This document shows positions 140 to 26,372 of a DNA stretch of 64,000 nucleotides, in pieces. Location: the NCBI GenBank assembly GCA_903893485.1, contig CAITMK010000012.1:83469-147468 (forward strand). Direction: 5' to 3'. The notes beneath the pieces were generated by a model, which saw only the letters and a list, made by a program, of their open reading frames with translations, was not told where the DNA came from and ran no database searches. Source of the stretch: Candidatus Magasanikiibacteriota bacterium (GTDB lineage Bacteria > Patescibacteriota > Patescibacteriia > Magasanikbacterales > 2-02-FULL-50-9b). Every line of letters starts with the position of its first letter. Position 1 is the stretch's first letter. A program made the position numbers and the translations under genes.

Positions 140-706
140 ATGAAAACGCTGAAGTGGTTTTTTGTGTTGTGTGTATTTGCACTTGTGGCCGTGGCGTGTG
201 AAAAGCAGGCTGCGTCGCAAACAGCGGGATACAACTGTGACGACTACACGGATCCCAATGAACCTCAGGTGGCAAAGCTGACGGGTAAGCTCGCGGAGCT
301 GCTCGACGAAAGCTATCATGGGACGGTCGTACGTCTCTCGGCCAAAGAGGTCGTTGATCTGCCAACGCCGCAGACGTGCGCGTACAGCAAATTCCAGAAC
401 ATCGGCACGTACAAAGATCCGGATGGCGTTTACCAATTCGCGGTGCTGGACGCCAACGACTGGGTGATTCCGGTGCTCACGTCGGCGGGCGCCATGTATC
501 AGATCTTGGTTCCGGCAAATGACGGCACGCACGATGCCTTTCGTGTTTATGTGCCAAAGATCGAGTTGGTCATGCAGCCAGAAGAAGCTGAGTGGTACAA
601 AAATTGGCGTGAGCCAGGGAGTCCACTCAGCGATATCTCGTTTGACTTTCGGTCCGTCAGCGCGGCGCAGTGCTCGGACTTGCACATTCCGCCGCGGGTG
701 AAGTAG
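140..706 (+). CDS. hypothetical lipoprotein
   Basis: 188-aa ORF. N-terminal signal peptide MKTLKWFFVLCVFALVAVAC with a lipobox-like VAC. No recognisable catalytic motif. Confidence 0.55.
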   Translation: MKTLKWFFVLCVFALVAVACEKQAASQTAGYNCDDYTDPNEPQVAKLTGKLAELLDESYHGTVVRLSAKEVVDLPTPQTCAYSKFQNIGTYKDPDGVYQFAVLDANDWVIPVLTSAGAMYQILVPANDGTHDAFRVYVPKIELVMQPEEAEWYKNWREPGSPLSDISFDFRSVSAAQCSDLHIPPRVK

Positions 707-1014
707 GTCAGGGATTCAAGTCAGGTCAGTTCAAGAGGCGCAAGCTTCGTGGACATGCCCGCCGATCAACCGATCGGGGGGTGTTTTTTTATTTGGAGAT
801 TCGCAGAGTTTTATTTTTATTTAATGCTTTCTCTGGTTTGTTGAGGAGCATCCGCAGGCGAGCCAGCACGGTTTTTTGGCGATGCCAAAAATGGCTCGCC
901 GAGGTCGAGCGCAAAAGTGCGCTGGCACTTTTGACGCGTCTCCGAGACAAGCTAGAGAAAGCATTGCATTTAATAATAAAATTCGCTAAAGTACATCTAC
1001 TAACTTCAGCTGAT

Positions 1015-4000
1015 ATGTCAGAAATGCCAAAGGCCTACGAGCCACAACAATTTGAAGATTCAATTTACGCCCGCTGGGAAGAATCCGGCGCGTTTATTCC
1101 AGAAAATTTGCCTGATTTTGCAACGCGCAAACCGTACACCATTATGCTGCCGCCGCCAAACGCAACGGGCACACTGCATGTGGGGCATTCAACCATGTTG
1201 GCCGTGCAAGACGCGCTGATTCGGTTTAATCGCATGAATGGCAAGCGCGCACTGTGGCTTCCGGGTACGGACCACGCGGCTTTGGCGACTCAAAATAAAG
1301 TTGAAAAAGATTTATTTAAAAACGAAAAAATAACGCGTCATGATTTAGGTCGCGAAGAATTGCTGAAGCGTATTGATGTGTTCGTAGAAAAAAATCGTGA
1401 CCGCATGACATTTCAAATGCGCAAAATGGGTTCGTCTCTCGATTGGTCGCGTGAAGCATTTACACTCGATGAGCCTCGTTCACGCGCGGTGCGTTTGGTG
1501 TTCAAACAAATGTTTGATGATAAATTAATTTATCGTGGCAATCGCGTGATTAACTGGTGTTCACGCTGCGCCTCAACGTTGTCGGATGACGAGCTCGGAA
1601 CCAAAACGCGCAAAGCAGTTTTGTATTCTTTCAAGTACGCCAAAGATTTTCCAATCACGATTGCATCAACGCAGCCAGAAACCAAATTGGGTGATACTGG
1701 TGTTGCGGTGTATCCGGGCGACGCACGCTACGAAGCACTTGTTGGAAAAACAATTGATGTGGATTTCGGCGGGCAGGGTGGATCGAAATTAAAAATTCAG
1801 ATCATTGCAGATCACGGTGTTGAAAAAGATTTTGGCACGGGCGCGCTTGGTGTAACACCGGCGCACAGCATGGTGGATTACGCACTCGCGATGAATCATA
1901 ATTTGCCACTTGTACAAATTATTGGCGAGGACGGCCTTATGACAGCTGCTGCTGGCAGCGCATACGAAGGACTCACGATTGCAGAGGCTCGTGAGAAAGT
2001 GGTGGCATGGCTGCGCGCAGAAAACTTAATTGAAAAAGAAGAAGAGATTGAACAAAATGTTCCAATCTGTGAACGATGCGAAACAGAAATAACACCGCTG
2101 CCAAAATTGCAGTGGTTTGTAAGCGTGGAAAACAAATTTGCATTTCGCGAATCAACGCGTGCGCCAGTTGCAGGCATTGCTGCAGGCTCACAAATCTCGC
2201 TCAAGGATTCAATGCGCCACGTTGTTGAAACAAAACAAATTAAAATTGTTCCAGAGCGTTTCGAAAAAACATATTTTCATTGGATCAATAATTTGCGCGA
2301 TTGGTGCATCTCTCGTCAGTTGTGGTACGGGCATCGCATTCCTGTGTGGTATTGCGCCGCGCCAAAAACAGAAAAATGTGCCGAAGCAGTTTGTTCCATC
2401 GAAGACATTTCAGTTTGTCAGCATTGTGGCGGCGTTGCAGAACAGGACCCAGATGTTTTGGACACCTGGTTTTCTTCGGGTATGTGGACATTCACCACAC
2501 TCGGTTGGCCATACACGCGTGTAATTTTTGTGCGTCATGGTGAAGCAGAAACAAATGTTGGTGATTTTTTAAATTCCGACGCTACAAAAGAGTATCATCT
2601 TACCGAGACTGGCCGCGCGCAAGTCGTGGCAACCGCAGAAAAATTAAAATTACAACACGTTGATGCAATTTTTGCATCGCCACTTTTGCGCACACAAGAA
2701 ACTGCAAAAATAATTTCTGATGCACTCGGATTGCCCGTAACCACCGAAGAATGTATTCGTGAAGCAGGGATGGGCGAGTTTGAAGGAAAGCTTACTGCAG
2801 AATTTGAGGCAATCATGGGCGATCGCGGTAATCCAGCAAACTGGATGCATTCGTCGCCAGGTGGCGCAGAAACATTTCAGGCGATTCGCGAAAGAACGCA
2901 TGGATTTTTAGATGAACTTATTAAAACACATACGGGTAAAACTATTGTGGTTGTTTCACATGGTGATCCAATCTGGGCAGCAGCATCGTTTGGAAAAAGT
3001 GGGGTGCTTTGGGATTCTGAGTATCCACAACGAGGTAGTTTTTACGTTCGTGAATTTGATACAACCGGTTCGCAAGTTGGCGACCTCAACACGTATCACC
3101 CAACCGATGTATTGGAAACTGGCTACGATATTATTTTTCAATGGGTTGCGCGCATGATTTTAATGTCCACGTACGCGCTTGGCGAGGTGCCATTCAAAAA
3201 CGTATATTTGCACGGCATGGTGCGTGACGAACAGGGCCGCAAAATGTCCAAGTCGCTTGGCAATGTGTTGGATCCGCTCGATGTGATTCCAAAATATGGC
3301 ACCGACGCAGTGCGCCTCGCGCTGCTCATCGGCCAGACGCCAGGCAACGACTTAAAAGTTTCCGAAGAAAAAATTGCAGGTTTCCGTAATTTCACCAACA
3401 AGCTGTGGAATATTTCGCGATTTATTTTGTCACAAGATGCAGCGTCACATTTGGTTTTGCGCGCCGACATCGACGACGAGTTGCTCACCACCATGGACAA
3501 GTGGATTTTGTCGCGCTTAGCTGGCGTTACCAAAACGGTTACCGAATCACTGCAAACATTTGCATTTTCGCGCGCCGGCGAAGCACTGCGCGATTTCACG
3601 TGGAATGAATTGGCAGATTGGTATTTGGAAGGCGCCAAAGTTGAGGGCGAAAAAGCAGAAATTTTGCAATACATTTTGCAGAATTTGCTGAAGCTGTGGC
3701 ATCCATACATGCCGTTTGTAACCGAAGCAATTTGGCAAAGCGCGTATGCATCTGGCGAAAAGGATTTTCTGATGATTGCAAAATGGCCAGACGAAACTAG
3801 CATGCCGTTGTACCCAGAAGCAGAAAAAGATTTTGCGCACGTACAAAATGTGATCGTGGCAATTCGTGCGCTGCGCACTGAGTACAAAATTGATGCAAAA
3901 GAAATAGTGCCCGTAACGATTATTACCAAATACAAAAGCACGCTTGCACAAATGCAACCAGTGATCGAACGCCTTGCGCGCGCTACATTATTATTCGCCG

Positions 4001-4269
4001 ATGCGGCACCAGCCGGCCAGCTTGCAACCGTGATTGAAGAGGGAACAATTACGATTCCAAAACCTGAGGCTGCAAATAACTCAGACGAACGCGGCGCGCT
4101 GGAAGCGGAAAAAGAAAATGTTGCACAATACATCGCAACGCTCGCAGCAAAATTAGCCAATGAAGATTTCTTGGCACGGGCGCCAGCGGCGGTGGTTGAA
4201 AAGGAGCAGGGCAAGTTACGCGAAGCGCGGGAAAAGCTGGCTGCGATTGAAGATCGGCTTGGCGCATAA
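1015..4269 (+). CDS. valS: valyl-tRNA synthetase carrying an internal histidine-phosphatase domain insertion
   Basis: Class I aaRS motifs: PPPNATGTLHVGHS (HIGH) and KMSKSLGNV (KMSKS). ValRS-type core with CP1 editing region, WCISRQLWYGHRIPVWYC, and a C-terminal coiled coil. Start chosen at the ATG at 1015 (MSEMPKAYEPQQFEDSIYARWEE...); the ORF is open from 670 but the upstream part looks non-coding. An in-frame insert of about 195 aa lies between the conserved ...DTWFSSGMWTFTTLGWP and YHPTDVLETGYDIIFQWVARMI blocks. Confidence 0.9.
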   Translation: MSEMPKAYEPQQFEDSIYARWEESGAFIPENLPDFATRKPYTIMLPPPNATGTLHVGHSTMLAVQDALIRFNRMNGKRALWLPGTDHAALATQNKVEKDLFKNEKITRHDLGREELLKRIDVFVEKNRDRMTFQMRKMGSSLDWSREAFTLDEPRSRAVRLVFKQMFDDKLIYRGNRVINWCSRCASTLSDDELGTKTRKAVLYSFKYAKDFPITIASTQPETKLGDTGVAVYPGDARYEALVGKTIDVDFGGQGGSKLKIQIIADHGVEKDFGTGALGVTPAHSMVDYALAMNHNLPLVQIIGEDGLMTAAAGSAYEGLTIAEAREKVVAWLRAENLIEKEEEIEQNVPICERCETEITPLPKLQWFVSVENKFAFRESTRAPVAGIAAGSQISLKDSMRHVVETKQIKIVPERFEKTYFHWINNLRDWCISRQLWYGHRIPVWYCAAPKTEKCAEAVCSIEDISVCQHCGGVAEQDPDVLDTWFSSGMWTFTTLGWPYTRVIFVRHGEAETNVGDFLNSDATKEYHLTETGRAQVVATAEKLKLQHVDAIFASPLLRTQETAKIISDALGLPVTTEECIREAGMGEFEGKLTAEFEAIMGDRGNPANWMHSSPGGAETFQAIRERTHGFLDELIKTHTGKTIVVVSHGDPIWAAASFGKSGVLWDSEYPQRGSFYVREFDTTGSQVGDLNTYHPTDVLETGYDIIFQWVARMILMSTYALGEVPFKNVYLHGMVRDEQGRKMSKSLGNVLDPLDVIPKYGTDAVRLALLIGQTPGNDLKVSEEKIAGFRNFTNKLWNISRFILSQDAASHLVLRADIDDELLTTMDKWILSRLAGVTKTVTESLQTFAFSRAGEALRDFTWNELADWYLEGAKVEGEKAEILQYILQNLLKLWHPYMPFVTEAIWQSAYASGEKDFLMIAKWPDETSMPLYPEAEKDFAHVQNVIVAIRALRTEYKIDAKEIVPVTIITKYKSTLAQMQPVIERLARATLLFADAAPAGQLATVIEEGTITIPKPEAANNSDERGALEAEKENVAQYIATLAAKLANEDFLARAPAAVVEKEQGKLREAREKLAAIEDRLGA
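2512..3093 (+). other. inserted histidine phosphatase (PGAM/SixA/CobC-like) domain inside valS
   Basis: Insert sequence YTRVIFVRHGEAETN...SPLLRTQETA...GEFEG...VVVSHGDPIW. It carries the RHG catalytic-His motif, the SPL-x-R-x-x-TA motif and the distal SHG His motif typical of histidine phosphatase branch 1. It is flanked in frame by conserved ValRS Rossmann-fold blocks. Confidence 0.75.
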
Positions 4270-4296: not shown

Positions 4297-4326
4297 CGTA
4301 GGGTGGCTGAAGCGCCACCCTTTTTG
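4297..4326 (+). terminator. rho-independent terminator after valS
   Basis: Stem gggtggc / gccaccc with a short loop, followed by ttttt. Confidence 0.6.
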
Positions 4327-4332
4327 GCGTAA

Positions 4333-5226
4333 ATGAGGTCTTTGATGAATTTGTATATTCGCTTTGACAGTGCATCGTCGGGCGCTTTTACCAATCTGCA
4401 CATCCTCGGCGGGGCTGAGGCCACCGTCAATGGCGAGCCGTTCGATGCCATGAATGAAACGCATCTCATGGAGGCGCTGAAGCTTGTGAAACTGCCGCGC
4501 AACGTGCGGCGCGGCCTTCTGAAAGTCGGGTTTTTCAAGCCCGATGAGCCGCATCTTGGAGATCCGAATGATCGCGTGATCGACTTCACGCACGCGATCG
4601 GGACTCCCGAAGGTGATTTCGAACCACTTGCGCCGCACACGGTGCGGGCACGCACGACGGCCAACATCGCCGTGGTGCGCAATCCCCGCAAGGGATCGAT
4701 GCAGTTCGCGGCGCGTGCCTCGGATTCCTGGATTGGCGTTTTGCGCGTTTACGCGCTTGGTCGCATCCAGCCGGTGGCCATGTTTTTCATCCATTTGGGT
4801 CGCGGCTGCGTGCTGCCACGGCAGGGCGGCAAGAGCGTCTTCGAGACCATCAAACAGTGGTGCCTCGATCAGGAGTTGGGCATCGTGCGGTCGGAGCTGA
4901 CGATTTCGGGTGGCATTGGCCCGTGCTGCTACCGGTTTGAGGACGCCACCAAGCTGAAGGGAGAAGTTTTCGCGCGTTACGGCGAAACGGGCGAGCGGAT
5001 CATCGGCAAATCCGGCGACGACCCCCGCGACTCGTTCGACATGCACGGCTTGATCCGCGAGGAGTTCGAAGGTGTGTTTGGGAAGATCCCTGAGCATCTC
5101 ATTCAGGTGTTCCAGGAACCGACCTTCTGCTGTGCGTGCCATCCTGCGGAGGGCAGCGATTTTGCGCTGAACTCCCAGGTGCGCTCGAAAAAAACGCGCC
5201 GCGACCTGTACCTCGTGGAAGTGTAA
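4333..5226 (+). CDS. hypothetical protein, possibly divergent YfiH/PgeF (DUF152) laccase-domain family
   Basis: 297-aa ORF in a GC-rich block. Motifs FFIHLGRGC and GGIGPCCYRFED resemble the YfiH HAGWRG and GPxIGPCCYEV blocks. The overlapping minus-strand ORF 4216..5142 is R-rich and looks antisense. Confidence 0.45.
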   Translation: MRSLMNLYIRFDSASSGAFTNLHILGGAEATVNGEPFDAMNETHLMEALKLVKLPRNVRRGLLKVGFFKPDEPHLGDPNDRVIDFTHAIGTPEGDFEPLAPHTVRARTTANIAVVRNPRKGSMQFAARASDSWIGVLRVYALGRIQPVAMFFIHLGRGCVLPRQGGKSVFETIKQWCLDQELGIVRSELTISGGIGPCCYRFEDATKLKGEVFARYGETGERIIGKSGDDPRDSFDMHGLIREEFEGVFGKIPEHLIQVFQEPTFCCACHPAEGSDFALNSQVRSKKTRRDLYLVEV

Positions 5227-5245
5227 CCACCGCCGCTACAACTCT

Positions 5246-5297
5246 GACCGCTCACGTTCTATTCGGAATGCGTGAGCGGTCGGGGTTCTTTTTTTTT
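5246..5297 (+). terminator. terminator-like hairpin plus T9 run
   Basis: 11-bp perfect stem gaccgctcacg / cgtgagcggtc (5246-5256 / 5271-5281) followed by ggggttc and ttttttttt. Confidence 0.5.
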
Positions 5298-5314
5298 GCC
5301 GCAGGCGCAAAAAT

Positions 5315-5356
5315 AAAAATCCACCTGGAGCCCGCGCGGATGCGTGGGGCAGGTGG
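5315..5356 (-). terminator. minus-strand terminator hairpin, repeat copy 1
   Basis: aaaaat-CCACCTG-gagcccgcgcggatgcgtgggg-CAGGTGG. On the minus strand the hairpin is followed by a T-run. It lies immediately downstream of the stop of gene 5385..5864(-). Confidence 0.6.
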
Positions 5357-5384
5357 GGCGTGTAGCAGGCGGCGTGGCGCCGGC

Positions 5385-5864
5385 CTATTCGGGGTTGGTG
5401 TCCAGGAAGGCGCTAAACAGCTCGAAGAGTGCAGTGAACACATCTGTCGGGTTGATCAGCAATCCGTTCTGGCCGATGTGTCGCTTCATCCACGACCGCA
5501 AGGAGCGCGGCGGCTCAAGCGACGAGATCATGAAGCGCATGATTGACCATTGCGCATCATCACTACATTCCAGCATGAGCGAATTCGCCATTTCGGGCTC
5601 GTCGCGCTTCATCCAGGTGAATGACACGCAGAAGCCGCAGTAGATCGTCGCGCGACGGTGGATCGAAATGCTGTGTCTGCACGCGTAACCGTGCTTCACG
5701 AGTGAAAAAATCGAGGCGTGTGGATCCTCGCTGTTTTTCCAGTCAGCATCCGGCCAAAGGCGCAATTGTTTCAGGGCATCCTCGAGCGTTTTTTGGGCGC
5801 GCAAGGTTTTTTCCGTCAGCGCAAATTGCTGCGGAGACGGGATGGTATGGGTCGTTGTGCTCAT
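5385..5864 (-). CDS. hypothetical protein (GC-rich cassette)
   Basis: Start set at MSTTTHTIPS, preceded by GGAGGAACC immediately 5' of the ATG on the minus strand. About 160 aa, Cys/His-containing, no recognised family. Confidence 0.5.
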   Translation of the reverse strand: MSTTTHTIPSPQQFALTEKTLRAQKTLEDALKQLRLWPDADWKNSEDPHASIFSLVKHGYACRHSISIHRRATIYCGFCVSFTWMKRDEPEMANSLMLECSDDAQWSIMRFMISSLEPPRSLRSWMKRHIGQNGLLINPTDVFTALFELFSAFLDTNPE

Positions 5865-5959
5865 GGGTTCCTCCGGGTTGAGAGCTTGGTAATAAGCTAC
5901 CATAATTTTCGATATTTGTCAAGCATCTTAGAGTGTTGCTTGGACGATTGAATTGATAA

Positions 5960-6001
5960 AAAAATCCACCTGGAGCCTACGCGGATGCGTGGGGCAGGTG
6001 G
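5960..6001 (-). terminator. minus-strand terminator hairpin, repeat copy 2
   Basis: aaaaat-CCACCTG-gagcctacgcggatgcgtgggg-CAGGTGG. 40 of 42 positions are identical to 5315-5356. Immediately downstream of the stop of gene 6022..6696(-). Confidence 0.6.
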
Positions 6002-6021: not shown

Positions 6022-6696
6022 CTAGGTGTTCAACTTGTCGAAAAGCTGTTGCAGATGCTGGCCGTGATTGTGCTCGACGAACGTCGTCCAATTCTTGAGG
6101 CGATCGACATTGCCGAGCGCGTAGTAATGGTTCGAACGAGTGAACACGGCATCTCCGTCTGTTTTGGTATTGCAGTGACCGAGGTGTGTTAAGCTCACGA
6201 TGTGTTCCATTGAGAGTTTAAACCGTCGAATTCTCGATAGTTCGCTGTTTGGATCGACCATTTCCGCGCTGCCATCTTCGTCAATCCTCAGCTGGCCGCA
6301 ACGAGGCTCCTCGGCAACGTGCAGCTTCAAGCTCCAGGGCGCGGCCTTGGGTAGTTCATAGGCCATCAAGATGTGGAGCGAAAGTTCGATCGAGTCCCAC
6401 AAATCACCAACTGAATGATTGCAGCGGATGAACAGTGCCTTGCTTGCAATCGCCGCGTCGAGATCACTCAGCAATTTGCTGAGGTCGGTCGCGCGCTCAC
6501 GATAGCCTTCGAACGAACGATGGTCGTCGAGCGTGTGCCACAGCAGCACTGCATCAAGCACCTTGTCGCCAGTCGTGGCGCCCATGAGCAGCTTGTCGTG
6601 CAAACGCCGCCGCCGCTTGTACTGCCTCACGGCAGCCGAGCTCAGTCGCACTTCAACATTGCGGATCGTATTCAGAGAACGTTGCGTGATTGACAT
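6022..6696 (-). CDS. hypothetical protein (GC-rich cassette)
   Basis: Start set at MSITQRS with GGAGGG upstream. Contains His/Asp-rich stretches (WHTLDDHRS, CNHSVGDLWD, VEHNHGQH) that vaguely recall metal-dependent hydrolases, but no confident family assignment. Confidence 0.45.
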   Translation of the reverse strand: MSITQRSLNTIRNVEVRLSSAAVRQYKRRRRLHDKLLMGATTGDKVLDAVLLWHTLDDHRSFEGYRERATDLSKLLSDLDAAIASKALFIRCNHSVGDLWDSIELSLHILMAYELPKAAPWSLKLHVAEEPRCGQLRIDEDGSAEMVDPNSELSRIRRFKLSMEHIVSLTHLGHCNTKTDGDAVFTRSNHYYALGNVDRLKNWTTFVEHNHGQHLQQLFDKLNT

Positions 6697-6796
6697 TGCT
6701 TGGGCCCTCCATTGGCCTGGGAGCATTTAATCATGAGAGTGTGCGATTGTCAATCCTCCCGCTTTCCGCTATTATGGCTTTATATCGAACGTTTTT

Positions 6797-8005
6797 ATGG
6801 CTCAAATCTCAACCGACAAGAAAAAAATTGCAGAATTGCTGGATCGTGGCGTTGCCGAAGTTATTGTGCGCGAGGATTTGGAAAAGAAATTGGCAAGCGG
6901 CCAGCAGCTGCGCGTGAAATTGGGTATTGATCCAACGTCGCCGAATTTGCATCTGGGTCGCTCGATTCCGCTGCTCAAGTTGCGCGACTTCCAGCAGCTC
7001 GGCCACAAAATTGTTTTTATTGTTGGTGATTTTACGGGCATTATTGGTGACACGTCGGACAAAGACGCGGAGCGCCCGATGCTGACCGAAGAAACGATCG
7101 CGAAAAATTTGGAAACCTACGTGGCGCAGGCCGGCAAAATTATTAATTTGGACGAGGCGGAGATTCATTTTAATTCCGCATGGCTCGGCAAACTCGGCTT
7201 CAAGGAAATCGGCGAGCTCGCAAACATTTTTAGTGTCGCGGAATTTGTGGCGCGCGAAAATATCGCCAAGCGCCTGGACACCGGCAAGCGCGTGAGCCTG
7301 CGCGAAATGCTGTACCCGCTCATGCAGGGGTACGATTCCGTTGCGGTGAAGGCAGACGTTGAGCTCGGCGGCACGGACCAGCGATTTAATGTTTTGGCGG
7401 GCCGCACCATTCAGCCGCACTACGGCCAGGCGGCGCAGAATATTGTTTTGAATCCGCTGATTAACGGGTTGGATGGGCGCAAGATGTCGAGCAGTTGGGG
7501 GAATGCGATTAATTTATTGGATGCGCCGGCGGATATGTACGGCAAAGTGATGTCGTTGCTCGACGAATTGGTTTTGGAATATTTTATGTGCGCGACGCGT
7601 GTGGAGATGGCGGAAATTACTGCGATGCAGGAGCAATTGGCTGGCGGCACAAATCCGCGTGATCTGAAAATGCGTTTGGGTCGCGAATTGGTAACGATGT
7701 ACCATGGTGCGGATGCTGCAGCGGCAGCCGAGGAACATTTTAAAACTGTGCACCAGCAAGGCGGCGTGCCGGAGGATATTCCAGAAATGAAAGTCGATTG
7801 GACGCAGGCGCCACTCGTGGATGTTTTAGTTGAATCAAAATTGTGTTCAAGCAAATCCGACGCCCGCCGCCAGATTACGGAAGGTGGTGTGAAGGTTGAT
7901 GGCGTTGTGGTTGAGGATGTCGGGGCGATGGTTGATTTGAGTGGAAAGAGCGAAGGCGTTTTGGTGCAGAAGGGGAAGAGATGGTTTGTGAAAATAGTGT
8001 CTTGA
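6797..8005 (+). CDS. tyrS: tyrosyl-tRNA synthetase
   Basis: GIDPTSPNLHLGR (HIGH-like), KMSSSWGN (KMSKS-like), C-terminal S4 domain (ARRQITEGGVKVDGVVVED). Confidence 0.85.
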   Translation: MAQISTDKKKIAELLDRGVAEVIVREDLEKKLASGQQLRVKLGIDPTSPNLHLGRSIPLLKLRDFQQLGHKIVFIVGDFTGIIGDTSDKDAERPMLTEETIAKNLETYVAQAGKIINLDEAEIHFNSAWLGKLGFKEIGELANIFSVAEFVARENIAKRLDTGKRVSLREMLYPLMQGYDSVAVKADVELGGTDQRFNVLAGRTIQPHYGQAAQNIVLNPLINGLDGRKMSSSWGNAINLLDAPADMYGKVMSLLDELVLEYFMCATRVEMAEITAMQEQLAGGTNPRDLKMRLGRELVTMYHGADAAAAAEEHFKTVHQQGGVPEDIPEMKVDWTQAPLVDVLVESKLCSSKSDARRQITEGGVKVDGVVVEDVGAMVDLSGKSEGVLVQKGKRWFVKIVS

Positions 8006-8007
8006 AT

Positions 8008-8289
8008 ATGGCCTCCGAAGATTACGATAAAGCAAAACAAATCGTCAAAGATTATACACTTGGAAAAGTCAGTGGAGAAGATAATAAATTACGAGCAGCT
8101 TGCGCCTTGTTAGAATCTGAAACTTTTACTCTGATTGAGAAAGCGATTAGAGATGGGATTGATTCGAATGAATTGCTCGCCAAGTCTAACCAGGTATATT
8201 CCGACAGAATGCGTACATTAACATTTGCGCTTGTCCTGATCGGAGCTATACAAATCATAGTTTCCGTTACCGGATTATTTTTAAAATAG
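8008..8289 (+). CDS. small tail-anchored membrane protein, hypothetical
   Basis: ATG directly after the tyrS stop. Soluble N-terminal part with a C-terminal TM (LTFALVLIGAIQIIVSVTGLFL). About 32% GC. Confidence 0.45.
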   Translation: MASEDYDKAKQIVKDYTLGKVSGEDNKLRAACALLESETFTLIEKAIRDGIDSNELLAKSNQVYSDRMRTLTFALVLIGAIQIIVSVTGLFLK

Positions 8290-8292
8290 AGT

Positions 8293-9123
8293 ATGTACTT
8301 AATTCTTCTCGCAATCAGTTTTGTTTTAGCTCAGGTTATAGCTCGCGGACTTTTTGATAGAAATTGGAGAGTAAAAGCACAGGAAAATGTCGATAGCATT
8401 AAAAATGAAAAAATATTTTGGTACCTGATGAGTCAGAAAGTAAATGCGGAAAAAGTTTTTTCTGCTTATTTGAGGACGAGAAATCAAAAAGACACTATTA
8501 GGGTTGGCGATTGTGTAATGGACGAATCTTCCGATAAAAATAATTTAAGAGCAAATGATCTTGATATAAGCACAATCATCGAGGGTGATAATATCTGGGT
8601 GATCAATTCTGAATTGAATCCAAAAATAGAGCAGAAAGAAAAAACTATCGATGATTTGTTGACTGAAAACAGAGTCCTTTTTTCAGAGGAAGAAATTCGC
8701 AAAAGTTTCAAGGTATATTTTGATGAGCATTTTTGGAACATTGATGAAGTACAAAAAAACTATAATCAATTCATGATCAATCATCTCGATGCGCTTATAA
8801 AATGTGACAAGACGGGTTTGGGGATTTGGAAAGTTTTAAAGGATTTTTCAGTTAACGAGCACAAATTTGAATTCGATCGTTGGGGTGAAAAACATATTGA
8901 ATTTCTTGATTCTTTAAAATTGCTCCAAAATGATATAAAAAGTTTCGTGATATTTTTTATTTGTGAAAAAATTGAAAATCCTAAGACCCTAAAGAAGGTG
9001 CTTACAGAATGGCAGCAGTTACAAATGCTTAGATGGTGTGTGGTGGATTTTAGCTTGTGGGAAATTGGGAAGAATAAAATTCAGACAAGTGTGTGGCGGC
9101 TTACGACCTCTTTGTTTTTATAA
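8293..9123 (+). CDS. hypothetical membrane-anchored protein
   Basis: 276 aa with N-terminal TM (MYLILLAISFVLAQVIARGLF), then a K/E/D-rich soluble domain. AT-rich. Separated from its neighbours by 4 and 13 nt. Confidence 0.5.
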   Translation: MYLILLAISFVLAQVIARGLFDRNWRVKAQENVDSIKNEKIFWYLMSQKVNAEKVFSAYLRTRNQKDTIRVGDCVMDESSDKNNLRANDLDISTIIEGDNIWVINSELNPKIEQKEKTIDDLLTENRVLFSEEEIRKSFKVYFDEHFWNIDEVQKNYNQFMINHLDALIKCDKTGLGIWKVLKDFSVNEHKFEFDRWGEKHIEFLDSLKLLQNDIKSFVIFFICEKIENPKTLKKVLTEWQQLQMLRWCVVDFSLWEIGKNKIQTSVWRLTTSLFL

Positions 9124-9135
9124 ATTTAACTAAAT

Positions 9136-9991
9136 ATGGAGCCAAACACCTTTCTGAAACAACTCTTGTTTTCTACTGTTCGCATAGAGGCGGATACTGA
9201 TGACGCTGGAAAGAAAAGTGTTGGAACCGGTTTTCTTGTGGCAAAAAAGATAAGCGATTCCGAACAGCAAATTTTTCTCATAACCAATAAACATGTCATT
9301 GCAAGAGCAGATGAGGTTGGAAAAATTATAGGCAAATTTGGTAAGGCACGTTTTTCATTTGTAAAAAGTGAAAAATAATAGCCCGAAATTAGGTAATTCA
9401 GTTGTAATAAATGTCGATGCTTTAACGGATATGTTTTTCCAGCATCCGGATGAAAATGTTGATCTGGCGATATGCAATATTTCTGAGTTATACAACCAAT
9501 TAAATCAAGGTAAACAAAATATTTTTATCAGAACTATTCCTATCGAAATGATTCCAGCGGAAAATGAAAATTTTGATGCCATTGAAGACGTTTTGTTCGT
9601 TGGCTATCCAAACGGAATCTTTGATCAGAAAAATCATTTGCCAGTTATGAGACGAGGGATTACTGCCTCTGCGTATGATGTTGATTTTAATGGCGGTAAA
9701 AAATTTCTTATTGATGCGCAGGTTTTTCCTGGTTCAAGCGGAAGTCCTGTTTTTATCAAAGAGCAAAATTTAAGAAATGGTACATTAAAACTTGGTGTAG
9801 AAAGATATTTTTTTGTTGGCGTCATTTCAAAGGTATTTCATAGGATTGAAACCGGTGATCTGGTTGAATCAACCGTCCCCACAAGTTTTGTGGCTAATAG
9901 TTTTTCGATCAAACAGATGATTGGACTGGGTATTTGCGAAAAATCAAATCAAATTTTTGAGCTAATCGAACTCATAAATAGAGTCAGCTAA
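9136..9991 (+). pseudogene. cytoplasmic trypsin-like (S1/PA clan) serine peptidase, interrupted by a +1 frameshift in an A5 run
   Basis: ORF 9136..9378 carries the His block LITNKHVIA. ORF 9368..9991 carries the Asp block NVDLAICNI and the Ser block GSSGSPVF. The two halves overlap at gtgaaaaataatag in different frames. No signal peptide. Confidence 0.6.
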
Positions 9992-12822: not shown

Positions 12823-14961
12823 ATGAAGTTCAACTTAGTATTTTCGAATTTATTTTTTGCGATTGCCGTGTCCGCCATTTGTTTTTTTGCCGCGCCAACA
12901 AAAACATTTGCAGCGGGCGAATTTAAAACAACGTGGAAATCTGATAATCCAGGAACATCGGCAAGTAATCAAATCACAATTCCAACCATTGTTGGACCTG
13001 CTTATAATTATCATGTTGATTGGGGAGATACAACCGCGAGCTCAACTGTAACCGGAACGGTGACGCACACCTATGCCGCACCGGGCACCTATCATGTTGC
13101 AATTACCGGAACATTTCCTGTAATTCAATTTGCAGACGCGGGCGATGCACAAAAACTTTTGTCTGTGGATCAATGGGGGACAAATGTGTGGGGTTCAATG
13201 TACGATGCTTTTTTTGGCTGCACCAATCTACACATTCTGGCAACTGACGCACCAAATCTTTCAGTCGCGGGCGACATGACATACATGCTGCGCGGCACCG
13301 CGGTGTCAACAGAAGATTTAAGTAGTTGGGATGTCAGCCATATCAGCGCCATGATCGGCACATTTCAAGATACCTTATTTAATGGAAACATTACCACGTG
13401 GAATACTGGCGCGGTTACCGACATGACTGGATTATTTTATAACGACTCAGCTTTTAATCAGGATATTGGGAATTGGAATGTCGGTGCGGTTACCGGCATG
13501 AGCGCCATGTTTTATTCGGCATCAAGTTTTAATCAGAATCTTTCGCTGTGGAATGTGGTGAATGTTACCAACATGAATGGTATGTTCAGAAACGCGAACG
13601 GATTTAATGGCACACTGGCGTGGGGAAATAAAACCGCGCACGTCACCGATATGAGCGCGATGTTTTTAGCAGCTTACGCTTTTAATCAAGACATTAGCGG
13701 TTGGGACACGCGCGCCGTTACCAGTATGACTGATATGTTTGCGTACGCCTATGATTTTAACCAAAATATTGGCTTGTGGAATGTGGGTGCGGTAACTGAC
13801 ATGGGTACGATGTTGTATCATGCAACATCATTTAATTACAGCCTGAGCAATTGGGATGTGAGCCACGTGACTAACATGCTTTCAATGCTTCAAGGCTGCA
13901 CCGCGTTTAATAGTGCGGTGTCGTGGGGAAGTAAAGTTTCGCACGTCACCAATTTTGAGGGAATGTTTACCGATGACACGTCATTTAATCAAGATGTCAG
14001 TGGTTGGGACGTGAGCGGTGCAACAGATTTGGCATATGCATTTACTGGCACCGCGTTTAATCAAAATCTTTCGCCATGGAATGTTGCAAACGTAACCACC
14101 ATGGATAATATTTTTACAAGCAGCGCGCTTTCCACCACCAATTACGATGCAATTTTGGCAGCGTGGTCCGCGGAAACATTGCAATCAAATGTTCTTTTTA
14201 GTGCGGGAAGTGCAACGTATTGTGCGGCTCGCGCAGGGCACGCGCGACTGCTTTCAAATTTTAGTTGGACAATTACCGATGGTGGGATCAATCCAACCTG
14301 TCGAACGATAACTTACACTGCTAGTGCAAATGGCAGCGTGACTGGCACCGCGACCCAATATTTAGAAAATGGTTTTACCTCGGCTAGTGTAACCGCAGTG
14401 CCAAATACGGGATATCGTTTTTTAAGTTGGTCTGATGGTCAATCGCAAAACCCGCGAACGGATGCAAATGTAACAAGTGATATTGCGGTCTCGGCAAATT
14501 TTTTGGCGCAAACCGTGTCAACGGGGAATACGATTTATTATAATGGATGCGCAGATCCAAAAGCATTAAATTATGATCCAATGGCCAGAAATATTTCGAC
14601 CATGTGTATGTATGCGCATACAGAAAATCCAGTAACTGTTTTGCAAAAAACAACTGATTTAATTGCACCAAAAACCGAAATCGAAAAACCAGTTTTTGAT
14701 TTTTCAAAAATAAAAAAACTGACCAAAGATTTAAAATTTGGAATGACCAGCGCAGAAATTAAAACAGTGCAAGATTTTTTGATTGCACAAAATAAAGGTG
14801 CGATGGCACAGCAATTAAAGACGCACGGCACAACAAATTATTTTGGTGCGTTAACTAAATCCGCACTTGCTGAATGGCAAAAAGCGTGTGGTATTATGCC
14901 AGCAGTTGGAAATTTTGGAGCACTTACCAGAAACTATATTAAATTGCTTAGCGCGTCATAA
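12823..14961 (+). CDS. secreted DUF285/BspA-like repeat surface protein with C-terminal peptidoglycan-binding domain
   Basis: Signal peptide. At least 9 repeats of the F..FNQ[DN]I..W[DN]V..VT.M..MF type. C-terminal GCADPKALNYDPMARNISTMCMYA motif and a PG_binding_1-like tail (VQDFLIAQNKG...NYFGALTKSALAEWQKACGI...GNFGALT). Confidence 0.7.
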   Translation: MKFNLVFSNLFFAIAVSAICFFAAPTKTFAAGEFKTTWKSDNPGTSASNQITIPTIVGPAYNYHVDWGDTTASSTVTGTVTHTYAAPGTYHVAITGTFPVIQFADAGDAQKLLSVDQWGTNVWGSMYDAFFGCTNLHILATDAPNLSVAGDMTYMLRGTAVSTEDLSSWDVSHISAMIGTFQDTLFNGNITTWNTGAVTDMTGLFYNDSAFNQDIGNWNVGAVTGMSAMFYSASSFNQNLSLWNVVNVTNMNGMFRNANGFNGTLAWGNKTAHVTDMSAMFLAAYAFNQDISGWDTRAVTSMTDMFAYAYDFNQNIGLWNVGAVTDMGTMLYHATSFNYSLSNWDVSHVTNMLSMLQGCTAFNSAVSWGSKVSHVTNFEGMFTDDTSFNQDVSGWDVSGATDLAYAFTGTAFNQNLSPWNVANVTTMDNIFTSSALSTTNYDAILAAWSAETLQSNVLFSAGSATYCAARAGHARLLSNFSWTITDGGINPTCRTITYTASANGSVTGTATQYLENGFTSASVTAVPNTGYRFLSWSDGQSQNPRTDANVTSDIAVSANFLAQTVSTGNTIYYNGCADPKALNYDPMARNISTMCMYAHTENPVTVLQKTTDLIAPKTEIEKPVFDFSKIKKLTKDLKFGMTSAEIKTVQDFLIAQNKGAMAQQLKTHGTTNYFGALTKSALAEWQKACGIMPAVGNFGALTRNYIKLLSAS

Positions 14962-17171: not shown

Positions 17172-18848
17172 ATGATTACCGCGGTAATTGCTGCAATTAA
17201 ACAAGCGCTTTTGGCGCAGGGAGTCCCTGAGCCTATTTTAGATAAGGCTGTTTTTTCTGAACCACCAAATCCAGCGCTTGGCGATTTGGCTGTTGCCGCG
17301 TTTCCGTTTGCAGCTTTTTGGTTTTGTGCGCCACCCGAAGCCGCACATAAACTTGCAGAAATTATCCGTGGCTCACACAATGCGATTTTTGAAATCACGG
17401 TTACGGGCCCGTACGTAAATATCAAATTACAAACCGCTGCCATTGTTCATGCAGCAACTCATTTCAAACCAGAAAAAATTCGCCCGCGCCCCGCGATCAT
17501 GTTTGAATATTCGCAGCCAAATACGCACAAAGAATATCACATCGGGCATTTGCGCAACGCGTGTTTTGGTGCGGCGTTAGTTGCGCTTTGGCGTGCGGCT
17601 GGCCAAAATATTATTCCGGTTACTTACAACAACGATGTTGGCGCGCACGTTGCAAAAACCCTGTGGGCATACAAAAAATTTCATGCTGGCGAAAAACCAC
17701 CAACCGAAAAGGGTCGATGGCTTGCGGGCATGTATGTTGAGGCGACACGTGCACTCGAAGAAAATCCAGATTATAAAGAAGAAGTGAGCGATGTCTTGCG
17801 CGCACTCGAAGCGCACGATCCAGAGTGGTACAAACTATGGAAGGAAACGCGTGGCTGGTCACTCGATCAGTTTCATGCGATTTATAAAAAATTGGATTTA
17901 AAATTTAAGCACACGTTTAACGAAAGCGCGATTAAAGAACGTGGTCATGCAATGGTTGATGATTTGCTGCGCCGCGGCATTGCAAAAAAATCGCAGGGCG
18001 CAATCATCATGGATTTTGAAGAACAAAATAAAGGTGTTTTAATTTTGCGTAAATCAGATGGCGCAGGGAATTATACAACTTCAGATTTAGCGCTCGCCGA
18101 AGAAAAATTTCGTCGCTTCAAATTAGATTCATCGCTCGTGGTAACCGATAAACGCCAGTCGTTATATTTTGAACAGCTTTTCATGACCCTGCATGCGTAC
18201 GGTTTTAAGCAGCACTTAAAACATTTGGATTACGAATTGGTGACGCTTCCCGAAGGTGCCATGAGTAGCCGCAAGGGTAATGTGATATTATTTGAATCGC
18301 TTTACGAAGAAGTTTTAGCGCATGCGATTGCAGAAACCACGCAGCGCCACGCAGATTGGTCAGCTAAAAAAGTTGCTAAAGTTGCCGAAGCATTAACGAT
18401 TGGCGCGATTAAATTTACCATGGTGCGCGCGTCGCCGCTCAAGGTTATTGTGTTCGATAAAACCGAAGCGTTAAGTTTCGACGGCTATACCGCGCCATAT
18501 TTGCAATACACCGTGGCGCGTATCAACAGCATTTTTAAAAAAGCAAAACTCACGCGCCCACGCGCGGCCGCAACTTTTGCATGGACCGATGCTGAACGAG
18601 CGCTTTGGATGCTCATGGCTCGCTTGCCCGATGTAATCGAACGCGCCGCCACCGACGACGATCCATCGCATGTGGCACGTTACTGTTTTGAATTGGCCAA
18701 GGCATTCTCGAGCTTCTATGAAACACATAAAGTACTCGATGACGACAAAACCATTCGCGCCGCACGTTTGCTCCTTGTTAAATCAACCCAAAAAACACTC
18801 CAAGTTGGCCTTAAATTACTTGGTTTGCCCGTAATAACCGAAATGTGA
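17172..18848 (+). CDS. argS: arginyl-tRNA synthetase
   Basis: N-terminal Arg-tRNA-synt_N-like region (PNPALGDLAVAAFPFA), HIGHLRNA (HIGH), and a C-terminal DALR-type anticodon-binding region. Confidence 0.9.
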   Translation: MITAVIAAIKQALLAQGVPEPILDKAVFSEPPNPALGDLAVAAFPFAAFWFCAPPEAAHKLAEIIRGSHNAIFEITVTGPYVNIKLQTAAIVHAATHFKPEKIRPRPAIMFEYSQPNTHKEYHIGHLRNACFGAALVALWRAAGQNIIPVTYNNDVGAHVAKTLWAYKKFHAGEKPPTEKGRWLAGMYVEATRALEENPDYKEEVSDVLRALEAHDPEWYKLWKETRGWSLDQFHAIYKKLDLKFKHTFNESAIKERGHAMVDDLLRRGIAKKSQGAIIMDFEEQNKGVLILRKSDGAGNYTTSDLALAEEKFRRFKLDSSLVVTDKRQSLYFEQLFMTLHAYGFKQHLKHLDYELVTLPEGAMSSRKGNVILFESLYEEVLAHAIAETTQRHADWSAKKVAKVAEALTIGAIKFTMVRASPLKVIVFDKTEALSFDGYTAPYLQYTVARINSIFKKAKLTRPRAAATFAWTDAERALWMLMARLPDVIERAATDDDPSHVARYCFELAKAFSSFYETHKVLDDDKTIRAARLLLVKSTQKTLQVGLKLLGLPVITEM

Positions 18849-22469: not shown

Positions 22470-22555
22470 GCGGACGTGGCGGAATGGTATACGCGCCAGC
22501 TTGAGGTGCTGGTGGGGGCAACCCTGTGGAGGTTCGAGTCCTCTCGTCCGCACCA
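22470..22555 (+). tRNA. tRNA-Leu (anticodon GAG)
   Basis: Acceptor GCGGACG/CGTCCGC. Anticodon stem CCAGC/GCTGG with loop TTGAGGT. Long variable arm. Encoded CCA. Confidence 0.8.
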
Positions 22556-22683: not shown

Positions 22684-22760
22684 GGACGCTTAGCTCAGTT
22701 GGTTAGAGCACCTCGTTTACACCGAGGGGGTCGTAAGTTCGAATCTTACAGCGTCTACCA
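22684..22760 (+). tRNA. tRNA-Val (anticodon TAC)
   Basis: Acceptor GGACGCT/AGCGTCT (G1-U72 wobble). GCTCAGTTGGTTAGAGC D-arm. Anticodon loop TTTACAC. GTTCGAATC T-arm. Encoded CCA. Confidence 0.8.
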
Positions 22761-22865: not shown

Positions 22866-24092
22866 ATGAAAATTTTTAATAAGAAATCACTCGCATTTGC
22901 TTGTGTAATTTCTTCGGCAATTAGTTTGGGCGGCCCAATCGTGGCGTTTGCGGCAGGTCCAGTGACAGTTAACCTATTATCTGCAGGTAACTATACTATT
23001 TTGGCAAAGTCAGGCATTTCAACAACAGGCACTACAAAAATTGTGGGCGACATCGGCGTTAGCCCCGCGGCCGCAACTTTTATTACAGGCTTTGGCCTAA
23101 GCCTAACTGTGGCGAACCCTTACGCAACAGCACCTCAAGTAACGGGTAAAGTTTATTCACCAAATTACGCATCGCCAACACCTACAAACATTTCAACCGC
23201 GGTAAATGATATGCAGACTGCATATACCGATGCGGCAGGTCGCACCAACCCAACTGCAACCGAATTAGGATCGGGGAATATTGGTGGCATGACCTTAGCC
23301 CCAGGATTATATAAATGGGGTACGAGCGTAACAATTCCAAGTAATTTGATATTAGCTGGTGGTGCAGATGATGTTTGGATTTTTCAAATCGCACAAACAC
23401 TCAATGTTAGTTCTGCTACAAAAGTGCTTTTGAGCGGCGACGCACAGGCAAGTAACATTTTTTGGGTGGTTGGTGGCCAAACAACAATTGGCACCACTGC
23501 ATCTTTTGTTGGCAACATTTTAGATCAAACCGCAATTGTATTAAACACCGGTGCATCTTTAGATGGTCGCGCACTCGCTCAAACCGCGGTTACCTTAGAT
23601 TCTAATTCAGTGACGGCTTCAGTGCCAACACTGATTTTAAATCCGACGCCAGTTGCTGTAACACCAGCACCGGTGTTCACGACTCCAACGGTGGTTGTCT
23701 CGCCACAAGCTCCAATCGTGAGTGCTCCTGCGGTAAGCAATGTTATTGCTAGTAATAATGGTCCGATTCCATTTGGCTTGATTTCGGCTCCAGCTGCATC
23801 AAGTTTTGTTGCTGTGCCAGCTGCGGCTGCGACAACTGGTTTGCAGATCAAATCAATCACAAAAAATCTTGTTCAAAGTGGTGCGGGAAATGATATAACG
23901 GTATTACAACAGTTTCTTATTGCGCAGAATAAAGGTTCTGCAGCACGAGCGTTGGGAAAAGTGGGCGCAACCTCACATTTTGGGGTATTAACCCGTGCTG
24001 CTTTGGCGGAGTTTCAGAAAAATGTTGGCATTGTTCCAGCGCTAGGAAATTTTGGCGCAATTACAAGAGCGTATATTAGCTTACATTACTAA
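22866..24092 (+). CDS. secreted DUF3494 (ice-binding-like) family protein with C-terminal peptidoglycan-binding domain
   Basis: Signal peptide. AGNYTILAKSGISTTGTTKIVGDIGVSP...LAPGLYKWGTSVTI...VWIFQIAQTLNVSSATKVLLSGDAQASNIFWVVGG...GRALAQTAVTLDSNSVT matches the DUF3494 pattern. PG_binding_1-like tail. Confidence 0.7.
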   Translation: MKIFNKKSLAFACVISSAISLGGPIVAFAAGPVTVNLLSAGNYTILAKSGISTTGTTKIVGDIGVSPAAATFITGFGLSLTVANPYATAPQVTGKVYSPNYASPTPTNISTAVNDMQTAYTDAAGRTNPTATELGSGNIGGMTLAPGLYKWGTSVTIPSNLILAGGADDVWIFQIAQTLNVSSATKVLLSGDAQASNIFWVVGGQTTIGTTASFVGNILDQTAIVLNTGASLDGRALAQTAVTLDSNSVTASVPTLILNPTPVAVTPAPVFTTPTVVVSPQAPIVSAPAVSNVIASNNGPIPFGLISAPAASSFVAVPAAAATTGLQIKSITKNLVQSGAGNDITVLQQFLIAQNKGSAARALGKVGATSHFGVLTRAALAEFQKNVGIVPALGNFGAITRAYISLHY

Positions 24093-26295: not shown

Positions 26296-26372
26296 GGGCA
26301 ATTAGCTCAGTTGGTTAGAGCGCTACATTGACATTGTAGAGGTCAGAAGTTCGAATCTTCTATTGCCCACCA
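26296..26372 (+). tRNA. tRNA-Val (anticodon GAC)
   Basis: Acceptor GGGCAAT/ATTGCCC. Anticodon loop TTGACAT. Encoded CCA. Confidence 0.8.

Follow-up and report, generated by a model that had tools for sequence, protein, structure and literature searches.

Few enzymes are known to be as conserved as the aminoacyl-tRNA synthetases and, to our knowledge, extra catalytic domains within the catalytic body of the bacterial enzymes are rare, the known ones serving fidelity (editing). What, then, might a histidine phosphatase be doing in the middle of a valyl-tRNA synthetase (ValRS)? The question is raised by a 64,000-nucleotide stretch of DNA from a Candidatus Magasanikiibacteriota bacterium (assembly GCA_903893485.1, contig CAITMK010000012.1, positions 83,469 to 147,468 of the forward strand; hereafter the window), in which a valS gene appears to encode both enzymes in one reading frame. 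As judged from sequence profiles and structure models, the insert is confirmed to have the complete fold of a branch-1 histidine phosphatase and to keep its catalytic residues. Our preferred reading, to which we would give a probability of roughly 0.6, is that the gene specifies a working ValRS fused to an active phosphatase of the small-molecule type, functionally partnered with ValRS and with isoleucyl-tRNA synthetase (IleRS).

The valS gene and its embedded phosphatase

The open reading frame (ORF) that spans the whole fusion runs uninterrupted from 670 to 4269 of the window on the forward strand (Table 1). Its start was set at the ATG at 1015 by alignment with orthologues that open with MSEMPKAYEP, which gives 1084 amino acids (aa) plus the stop codon; an earlier note on this DNA had counted 1085, and had correctly described the product as a full ValRS plus one phosphatase domain. 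The whole protein passes the NCBIfam equivalogs for valS (PRK05729 with 942.6 bits against a cutoff of 704, TIGR00422 with 864.8 against 612.1), and both signature motifs are intact, HIGH as HVGH (aa 55-58, window 1177-1188) and KMSKS (aa 743-747, window 3241-3255). The Pfam family tRNA-synt_1 is matched with E=9e-119, the match being split in two by His_Phos_1. Aligned to the Thermus thermophilus ValRS (1GAX), aa 3-500 correspond to residues 2-471 and aa 688-1082 to residues 473-858. The N-terminal part comprises, in order, the first Rossmann half with HIGH, the CP1 editing domain, CP2 and CP3 with its Cys knuckle, and closes with the DTWFSSG helix, which ends in TLGWP499. The C-terminal part resumes with the loop VGDLNTYHP and continues through strand beta4 (DVLETGYD), KMSKS, the anticodon-binding domain and the C-terminal coiled-coil tRNA-binding arm. 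PF08264 and PF10458 are both present, and CP1, the anticodon-binding domain and the coiled-coil arm all align to 1GAX. By architecture and motifs the gene is thus a bona fide valS, with all the modules and motifs of the T. thermophilus enzyme (1GAX/1IVS), from which it differs by a foreign domain of about 188 aa at E472 and by a Ser in place of the first Asp of the editing motif AHDxxDY. The second Asp of this motif (GTGALGVTPAHSMVDY) is retained. The substitution (aa 284-288, AHSMVD, at window about 1864-1878; TPAHSxxDY as against TPAHDPLDY in T. thermophilus) is not peculiar to the fusion, Ser285 being invariant across 61 patescibacterial ValRS whether they bear an insert or not. The window holds no second ValRS and no other His_Phos protein of the insert's family.

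Where exactly does the foreign domain begin and end? The flanking ValRS blocks, WFSSGMWTFTTLGWP (aa 485-499, window 2467-2511) and aa 694-708 (3094-3138), are separated by 194 aa, exactly the interval 2512-3093 that the earlier note had delimited, with an estimate of about 195 aa in a continuous frame. The final six residues of this interval, VGDLNT, align to the native loop TEDLKA of the T. thermophilus enzyme; the foreign segment is therefore shorter than the interval, about 188 aa (about aa 500-687), and ends at 3075. It takes the place of a single loop residue (E472 in the 1GAX alignment), in the loop that connects the WFSS helix, which starts with DTWFSSG, to strand beta4. Relatives that lack the insert have 8-9 residues between GWP and (Y/F)HP/YP, somewhat fewer than the 10-20 of the earlier note, for example GWPNDNGDLATYHP in the Magasanikbacteria protein P0132 and GWPEETEDLKAFYP in T. 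thermophilus (P and L numbers designate the proteins and loci compared). From the topology of the Rossmann fold one would expect a surface loop here, entering the strand at its N-terminal end and lying away from the substrate. The insertion does lie in the catalytic domain in sequence terms, but to place it in the active-site region, as had been done, was an overstatement. In the full-length AlphaFold2 (AF2) model (predicted local distance difference test score, pLDDT, 88.3; predicted template modelling score, pTM, 0.82; insert region mostly at pLDDT 89-97), the body of the ValRS can be superposed on 1GAX with TMt 0.80. The first phosphatase strand (aa 501-507) starts two residues past GWP499, and the last (aa 676-681) is followed by a short loop and a helix and then by ValRS beta4 (697-703). 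The phosphatase would thus be tethered by very short connections, essentially without linkers. Structure comparison of the full-length model found no comparable insert in any solved synthetase.

The insert itself is easily recognised. Pfam places His_Phos_1 (PF00300) at aa 503-657, with E=1.3e-37 for the whole protein and 5.4e-38 for the insert alone (131.1 bits against a gathering score of 21.7). The hallmarks listed in the earlier note are all there, namely RHGE (R507, H508), SPLLRTQETA (R559), IRE..GEFEG (E583) and VVVSHGD (H649). Together with N514 these residues make up the catalytic set, in which we take His508, by what is established for the superfamily, to be the phospho-accepting nucleophile. 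They are found unchanged in all 39 ValRS domains compared at the window's site and in 72-76 of the 76 domains embedded in IleRS. The complete enzymatic fold that had been proposed is borne out by the AF2 model of the isolated insert (pLDDT 90.4). Its full-length Foldseek matches, cap included, are PhoE (TM 0.82-0.84), PspA (0.80-0.82), GpgP, CobC and a riboflavin-pathway phosphatase (HFP), all of them capped small-molecule enzymes; by sequence, PspA 4IJ5 and PhoE 1H2E come nearest among the solved structures. With PhoE (Geobacillus, 1H2E/1EBB), PspA (4IJ5), CobC and GpgP the insert shares 24-30% of its residues, the catalytic Arg-His...Arg...Glu...His set without change, and the capped fold (TM 0.78-0.84); these are free-standing proteins, however, whereas the insert is embedded, falls below the subfamily cutoffs and carries a lineage signature of its own. 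It is also acidic (net charge -10, isoelectric point 5.1; the median net charge is -7 for domains at the window's site), and both the cap and the acidic surface speak for a small phosphorylated substrate rather than tRNA. The insert is probably a catalytically active phosphatase. A PADLOC search returned no defence-protein match for either the insert or the whole protein.

Table 1. Location of the valS fusion, its predicted catalytic codons and the other annotated genes, in window coordinates
Feature	Position	Strand	Basis or remark
valS (valine--tRNA ligase with embedded phosphatase)	1015..4269	+	Continuous ORF, orthologue alignment, equivalogs, AF2
N-terminal ValRS part	1015..2511	+	Pfam tRNA-synt_1 aa 17-501; 1GAX alignment
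Inserted histidine-phosphatase domain (branch 1, PhoE/PspA/CobC-like), aa 500-687	2512..3075	+	Pfam, AF2, Foldseek
Codons Arg507-His508 (RHG motif)	2533..2538	+	Invariant columns R8, H9 of alignment A1; 39/39
Codon Arg559 (SPLLR), predicted phosphate-binding arginine	2689..2691	+	Invariant column R60; 39/39
Codon Glu583 (IRE), predicted general acid	2761..2763	+	Invariant column E84; 39/39
Codon His649 (VSHGD), second active-site histidine	2959..2961	+	Invariant column H150; 39/39
C-terminal ValRS part	3076..4266	+	1GAX alignment; Pfam Anticodon_1 aa 828-964, Val_tRNA-synt_C aa 1025-1082
tyrS	6797-8005		In same window as valS
argS	17172-18848		In same window as valS
tRNA-Leu(GAG)	22470-22555		Rfam
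tRNA-Val(TAC)	22684-22760		Rfam; 3' CCA encoded
tRNA-Val(GAC)	26296-26372		Rfam; 3' CCA encoded

Reality and age of the fusion

The most mundane explanation of such a gene would be an artefact or a selfish element: two genes joined by misassembly, an intein, or a mobile insertion that has inactivated valS. We find this scarcely credible. An identical protein is already present in a public collection, its cluster having been seen on 2 contigs, and among the matches listed 37 full-length ValRS (the window's included), 48-70% identical in alignment A3, have the identical junction, with the shared pattern ...TLGWP-x-T...RHG... / ...DL..(Y/F)HP. That dozens of orthologues, the most distant only about 47% identical, share one junction disposes of a chimeric assembly and also answers the question, raised earlier, of whether relatives share the fusion. 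As for an intein, the frame is intact, the insert opens with YTR and ends with ...TGSQ/VGD, there is no His-Asn/Cys-Ser-Thr splice-junction pair, and the Pfam scan gave no Hint or intein match, so this candidate was rejected, as it had been in the earlier note. Direct or inverted repeats flanking the insert amount to short chance-level matches. No promoter or terminator signal inside valS rises above the shuffled expectation, and an Rfam scan of the window found no RNA leader and no family besides the three tRNAs.

The one feature that might suggest a selfish or foreign origin is base composition. The G+C content at third codon positions (GC3) is 0.30 in the insert as against 0.47 in the rest of valS, lower than in every 188-codon window of the host gene (0.38-0.59). 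However, three orthologous genes (L001-L003) have no such dip in their inserts, and the nearest relatives of the window's insert are the domains of its own ValRS clade; on these two grounds we rejected a recent foreign origin. We therefore treat the low GC3 as an unexplained local feature and not as a sign of recent transfer. One of the loci just mentioned, L002 (CAYHOC010000006.1), is labelled 'uncultured Gammaproteobacteria' and has a ValRS with the insert at the window's position, about 51% identical to the patescibacterial fusions; the taxon label is probably a binning or labelling error.

How long has the insert been there? In a neighbour-joining tree of the ValRS bodies, from which the inserts had been removed, the insert-bearing enzymes form at least six groups interleaved with insert-less ones. 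The window's clade, with 12 members, has 100% bootstrap support, and inside this clade P0132, which has no insert, clusters with six insert-bearing members (bootstrap 99.5%). This nested position implies vertical inheritance followed by one loss in the window's clade. On these sequence comparisons the insert is old within that clade, mostly maintained and occasionally lost.

Hosts, neighbours and possible roles of the phosphatase

The window's insertion point, which we call site A, is not the only one in ValRS. A second, site B, lies about 45 residues upstream in CP3, ahead of DTLDTWFSS, where the domain separates the two Cys pairs of the knuckle, and at least 15 ValRS clusters have this junction (P0158, P0181, P0199, P0201, P0204, P0234 and others). 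Two phosphatase subtypes are found at site B, the 'LNSD' type, as in the window, and a canonical 'xxG..D.PL' type, and this diversity suggests that the domain was acquired more than once. Among the oddities in ValRS, the site-B enzyme P0181 has about 140 extra residues past its phosphatase (about 632-778) with no Pfam or NCBIfam match, and the fragment P0241 carries three to four phosphatase domains in series.

To which other proteins has this lineage of phosphatases been joined? A profile of the inserts, searched against 1.84 billion representatives, gave 466 matches at E<=1e-30, and the best 150 of the 466 were classified. Eighty of these 150 are long hosts, 73 of them IleRS-like and 7 ValRS, with no other host family; the remainder are either free (about 190 aa) or tandem proteins (about 410 aa). 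An NCBIfam check of hosts confirmed five IleRS and, in one further host, a ValRS that contains two phosphatase domains. Of the domains embedded in IleRS, 69 lie in CP3, 3 at the equivalent of the window's site (the loop past WFxSG) and 4 in the anticodon-binding domain, and several proteins contain the domain at least twice. The hosts include IleRS of both sequence types (P0242, P0248, P0249, P0253, P0333, P0365 and others). According to source names and locus titles, the fusion proteins come from Magasanikbacteria, Falkowbacteria, Uhrbacteria, Saccharibacteria, Peribacteria, Gracilibacteria and the 'Patescibacteria group'.

The choice of query affected what was retrieved. A genome scan with a 6-sequence profile, dominated by generic patterns such as VIFVRHGE, returned 80 loci, mostly unrelated His_Phos genes of Actinomycetota, with about 8 embedded domains. 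Word-index protein searches with a 188-aa or 286-aa query gave matches of about 500 aa at the longest, and the fusions surfaced with the full-length query only. On long contigs there are also short proteins (P0019, P0098) that begin inside the phosphatase and run into ValRS or IleRS, and at the Gracilibacteria loci L035 and L060 ORFs of 1936-1971 aa appear only under code 25, in which UGA is a sense codon. Such short ValRS and IleRS fragments are probably gene-calling breaks and not split genes.

Full-text literature searches found no description of an architecture that joins a synthetase to a histidine phosphatase. To this extent the view that it was undescribed stands; the proteins are nonetheless common in public databases, where the automatic name given by the Joint Genome Institute (JGI), 'valyl-tRNA synthetase/broad specificity phosphatase PhoE', already states both activities. 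Synthetases with added domains as such are known. The nearest parallel is the IleRS with an embedded N-acetyltransferase (GNAT), an NCBI exception family (NF040702, ileS_w_GNAT), which is likewise a class Ia synthetase with an internal extra catalytic domain. There, however, the guest is a GNAT and, by profile coordinates, sits at another position, and the window protein is not a member (162.8 bits against a cutoff of 1999). His_Phos domains are also fused to nucleic-acid or nucleotide enzymes in the mycobacterial RNase H/acid phosphatase (PRK07238, Rv2228c type) and in the Nudix-His_Phos protein MutT1. PRK07238 ranks fairly high among the NCBIfam models that match the insert (94.6 bits, below cutoff), but these are end-to-end fusions with other partners, not loop insertions.

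The free-standing members of the lineage are informative because of their neighbours. The closest of them (P0389-P0392) are 42-45% identical to the insert and have the same lineage features, and the signature RHGEAxxN...LNSD...LTEKG, SHGD is common to the insert and the copies associated with IleRS or ValRS. The gene for P0389 (L083, 204-785) ends 2 nucleotides ahead of a same-strand ileS (788-2899), and P0262 (L089, 6001-6570) is wedged between argS (4303-5997), 3 nucleotides away, and ileS (6572-9367), 1 nucleotide away. P0390 (L081) lies 1.5 kb upstream of ileS, with genes for a hemerythrin, a HIT protein and one small product between, and the free phosphatase P0274 follows argS. The HIT-family hydrolase and hemerythrin genes lie at 1217-1681 of L081; HIT proteins hydrolyse aminoacyl-adenylates and related phosphoramidates. 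Where a free phosphatase adjoins ileS, the IleRS in question has no insert, so that 'adjacent' and 'embedded' look like alternative states of one partnership.

Our preferred reading, a functional partnership of phosphatase and synthetase, may be put as follows. The ValRS part would work as usual, HIGH and KMSKS serving valine activation and transfer, CP1 editing, and the anticodon-binding and coiled-coil domains binding tRNA-Val. The phosphatase would hydrolyse a phosphomonoester by way of a phospho-His508 intermediate, with the phosphate held by Arg507, Arg559 and His649 and with Glu583 as the acid, and it would be kept under selection for this catalysis. The same lineage occurs free beside ileS, at three IleRS loops and two ValRS loops, and sometimes in tandem, which suggests that selection acts on the partnership, that is, on co-expression, 1:1 dosage and proximity to IleRS or ValRS, and not on a fixed active-site geometry. 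With the phosphatase at several unrelated loops, proximity and dosage seem weightier than any exact orientation at the active site. Its substrate would be a small molecule that IleRS and ValRS produce or are disturbed by, the candidates being AMP, other nucleoside phosphates, possibly pyrophosphate, and phosphorylated amino-acid-like compounds. The enzymatic activity, the functional coupling and the class of substrate are what we infer from these patterns.

Several observations weigh against this preferred reading. The insert reaches no NCBIfam phosphatase subfamily cutoff (dPGM_arch 102.2 against 225, CobC 84.7 against 162.9, PspA 76 against 350, SixA 36.1 against 74.5, GpmB 55.3 against 261), so homology does not name a substrate. 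Not all the free relatives keep the expected company, P0392, P0395, P0277 and the tandem protein P0252 having neither ileS nor valS as a neighbour. No free phosphatase gene lies within 10 kb of the valS of the insert-less P0132, and the insert of P0128 has an internal deletion of about 34 aa; this loss and this deletion indicate that the insert is dispensable in some lineages. The monophyly of the site-A domains has a bootstrap of 38/100 in a domain tree (192 columns) too poorly resolved to order the transfers among IleRS, ValRS and free genes. Finally, several unrelated insertion loops are also what one would expect were the domain merely tolerated. The P0128 deletion (locus L006, Magasanikiibacteriota) takes out the GEFEG...W...P region, which suggests decay of the phosphatase in that lineage.

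This brings us to the main rival explanation, namely that an ordinary housekeeping or metabolic phosphatase, perhaps a salvage enzyme of a reduced genome, has lodged in tolerant loops of large, essential and steadily expressed genes, its chemistry having nothing to do with aminoacylation. The domain does occupy five or more loops in two enzymes, one of them in the anticodon-binding domain far from the catalytic site, and CP3, by which CP2 is connected to the second Rossmann half, varies in structure from one IleRS to another (PMC7191050). The loop of one IleRS that is equivalent to the window's holds an unrelated P-loop domain, P0132 lost its insert without local compensation, and the nearest characterised relatives are generic small-molecule phosphatases. 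Such a passenger would nevertheless not be predicted to form tight operons with ileS as the free relatives do, and both the narrow range of the 80 long hosts and the conservation of catalytic residues and rigid junctions over deep divergence tell against it. On balance we think this rival doubtful, while taking it seriously.

The IleRS with the P-loop domain, P0348 (1395 aa), has a phosphatase in CP3 and a kinase-like domain (about 737-869) at the window-site equivalent; the latter matches Pfam AAA_18/AAA_33 and, weakly and unspecifically, shikimate kinase, APS kinase and Pnkp1 (E about 0.02-0.06). The pair echoes 6-phosphofructo-2-kinase/fructose-2,6-bisphosphatase and the polynucleotide kinase-phosphatases, no more than a general resemblance, and one that does not extend to the window's ValRS, which has no kinase domain. 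It is also reminiscent of the kinase-phosphatase pairs of RNA repair enzymes and, with the Pnkp1 match (E=0.06), lends something to the idea that the phosphatase heals tRNA ends, bringing damaged or toxin-modified tRNA into a form that the synthetase can charge by stripping a 2'/3'-phosphate (or the product of a cyclic phosphate) from its CCA end. Consistent with this, the CCA-adding enzyme of one related locus shows no HD phosphohydrolase domain, and the CP3 site directly follows the CP2-CP3 linker, which lines the tRNA CCA pocket of IleRS (PMC7955072). The domain has, however, kept a small-molecule cap, its acidity is unfavourable for RNA binding, and one of its IleRS sites is in the anticodon-binding domain; the restriction to IleRS and ValRS would be left unexplained as well. 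Moreover, histidine phosphatases are not known to act on RNA ends. We consider tRNA-end healing unlikely.

The histidine-phosphatase superfamily does include protein phosphatases, and class I synthetases are among the targets of HipA-type kinases. The insert could then be a regulator in the manner of SixA, PGAM5 or Sts that dephosphorylates the synthetase or a partner, for instance by reversing HipA-like kinase inactivation, and tethering would make such action in cis efficient. We judge this very improbable: the SixA model is missed by far (36 against 74.5 bits), the fold resembles that of the capped small-molecule enzymes and not the minimal open SixA type, and the contexts examined contain no associated kinase gene. 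The earlier note had suggested action on the tRNA 3' end or on a nucleotide, or regulation of the synthetase; of these, tRNA-end healing and protein dephosphorylation appear less likely as roles.

To return to the functional partnership, a bolder form of it, which we advance tentatively, is that this patescibacterial lineage of phosphatases is a dedicated partner of IleRS and ValRS that carries out a new accessory step of aminoacylation and has been fixed repeatedly by loop insertion. In such a step the enzyme might dephosphorylate a poison or a product of the synthetases, either a nucleotide or an amino-acid-like compound, or possibly the tRNA acceptor end. The recurrent building-in of the domain, together with the neighbouring genes, suggests that in Patescibacteria (the "candidate phyla radiation"), a very large and poorly understood radiation of tiny bacteria, phosphate-ester hydrolysis is functionally linked to the charging of tRNA-Ile and tRNA-Val. 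If the link is true, it might amount to a new accessory reaction in translation; it might also be a mechanism of resistance or repair, or a shortcut in the metabolism of reduced genomes. Whatever the role, the insertions map several loops of class Ia synthetases that tolerate a whole domain, which should be useful for enzyme engineering.

Other features of the window

The window carries two further synthetase genes besides valS, tyrS and argS (Table 1), and the order valS...tyrS recurs in an insert-less relative (L094). Just beyond valS, between 4333 and 5900, the G+C content is 0.58-0.63 as against about 0.45 in valS, and long ORFs overlap on both strands; the 297-aa ORF at 4333-5226 has no Pfam match. 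A giant ORF of 4081 aa occupies 27063-39308 on the forward strand. Two predicted products, one with DUF285 repeats and an InlB B-repeat (12823-14961) and the other with an ice-binding-like domain (22866-24092), are probably surface proteins.

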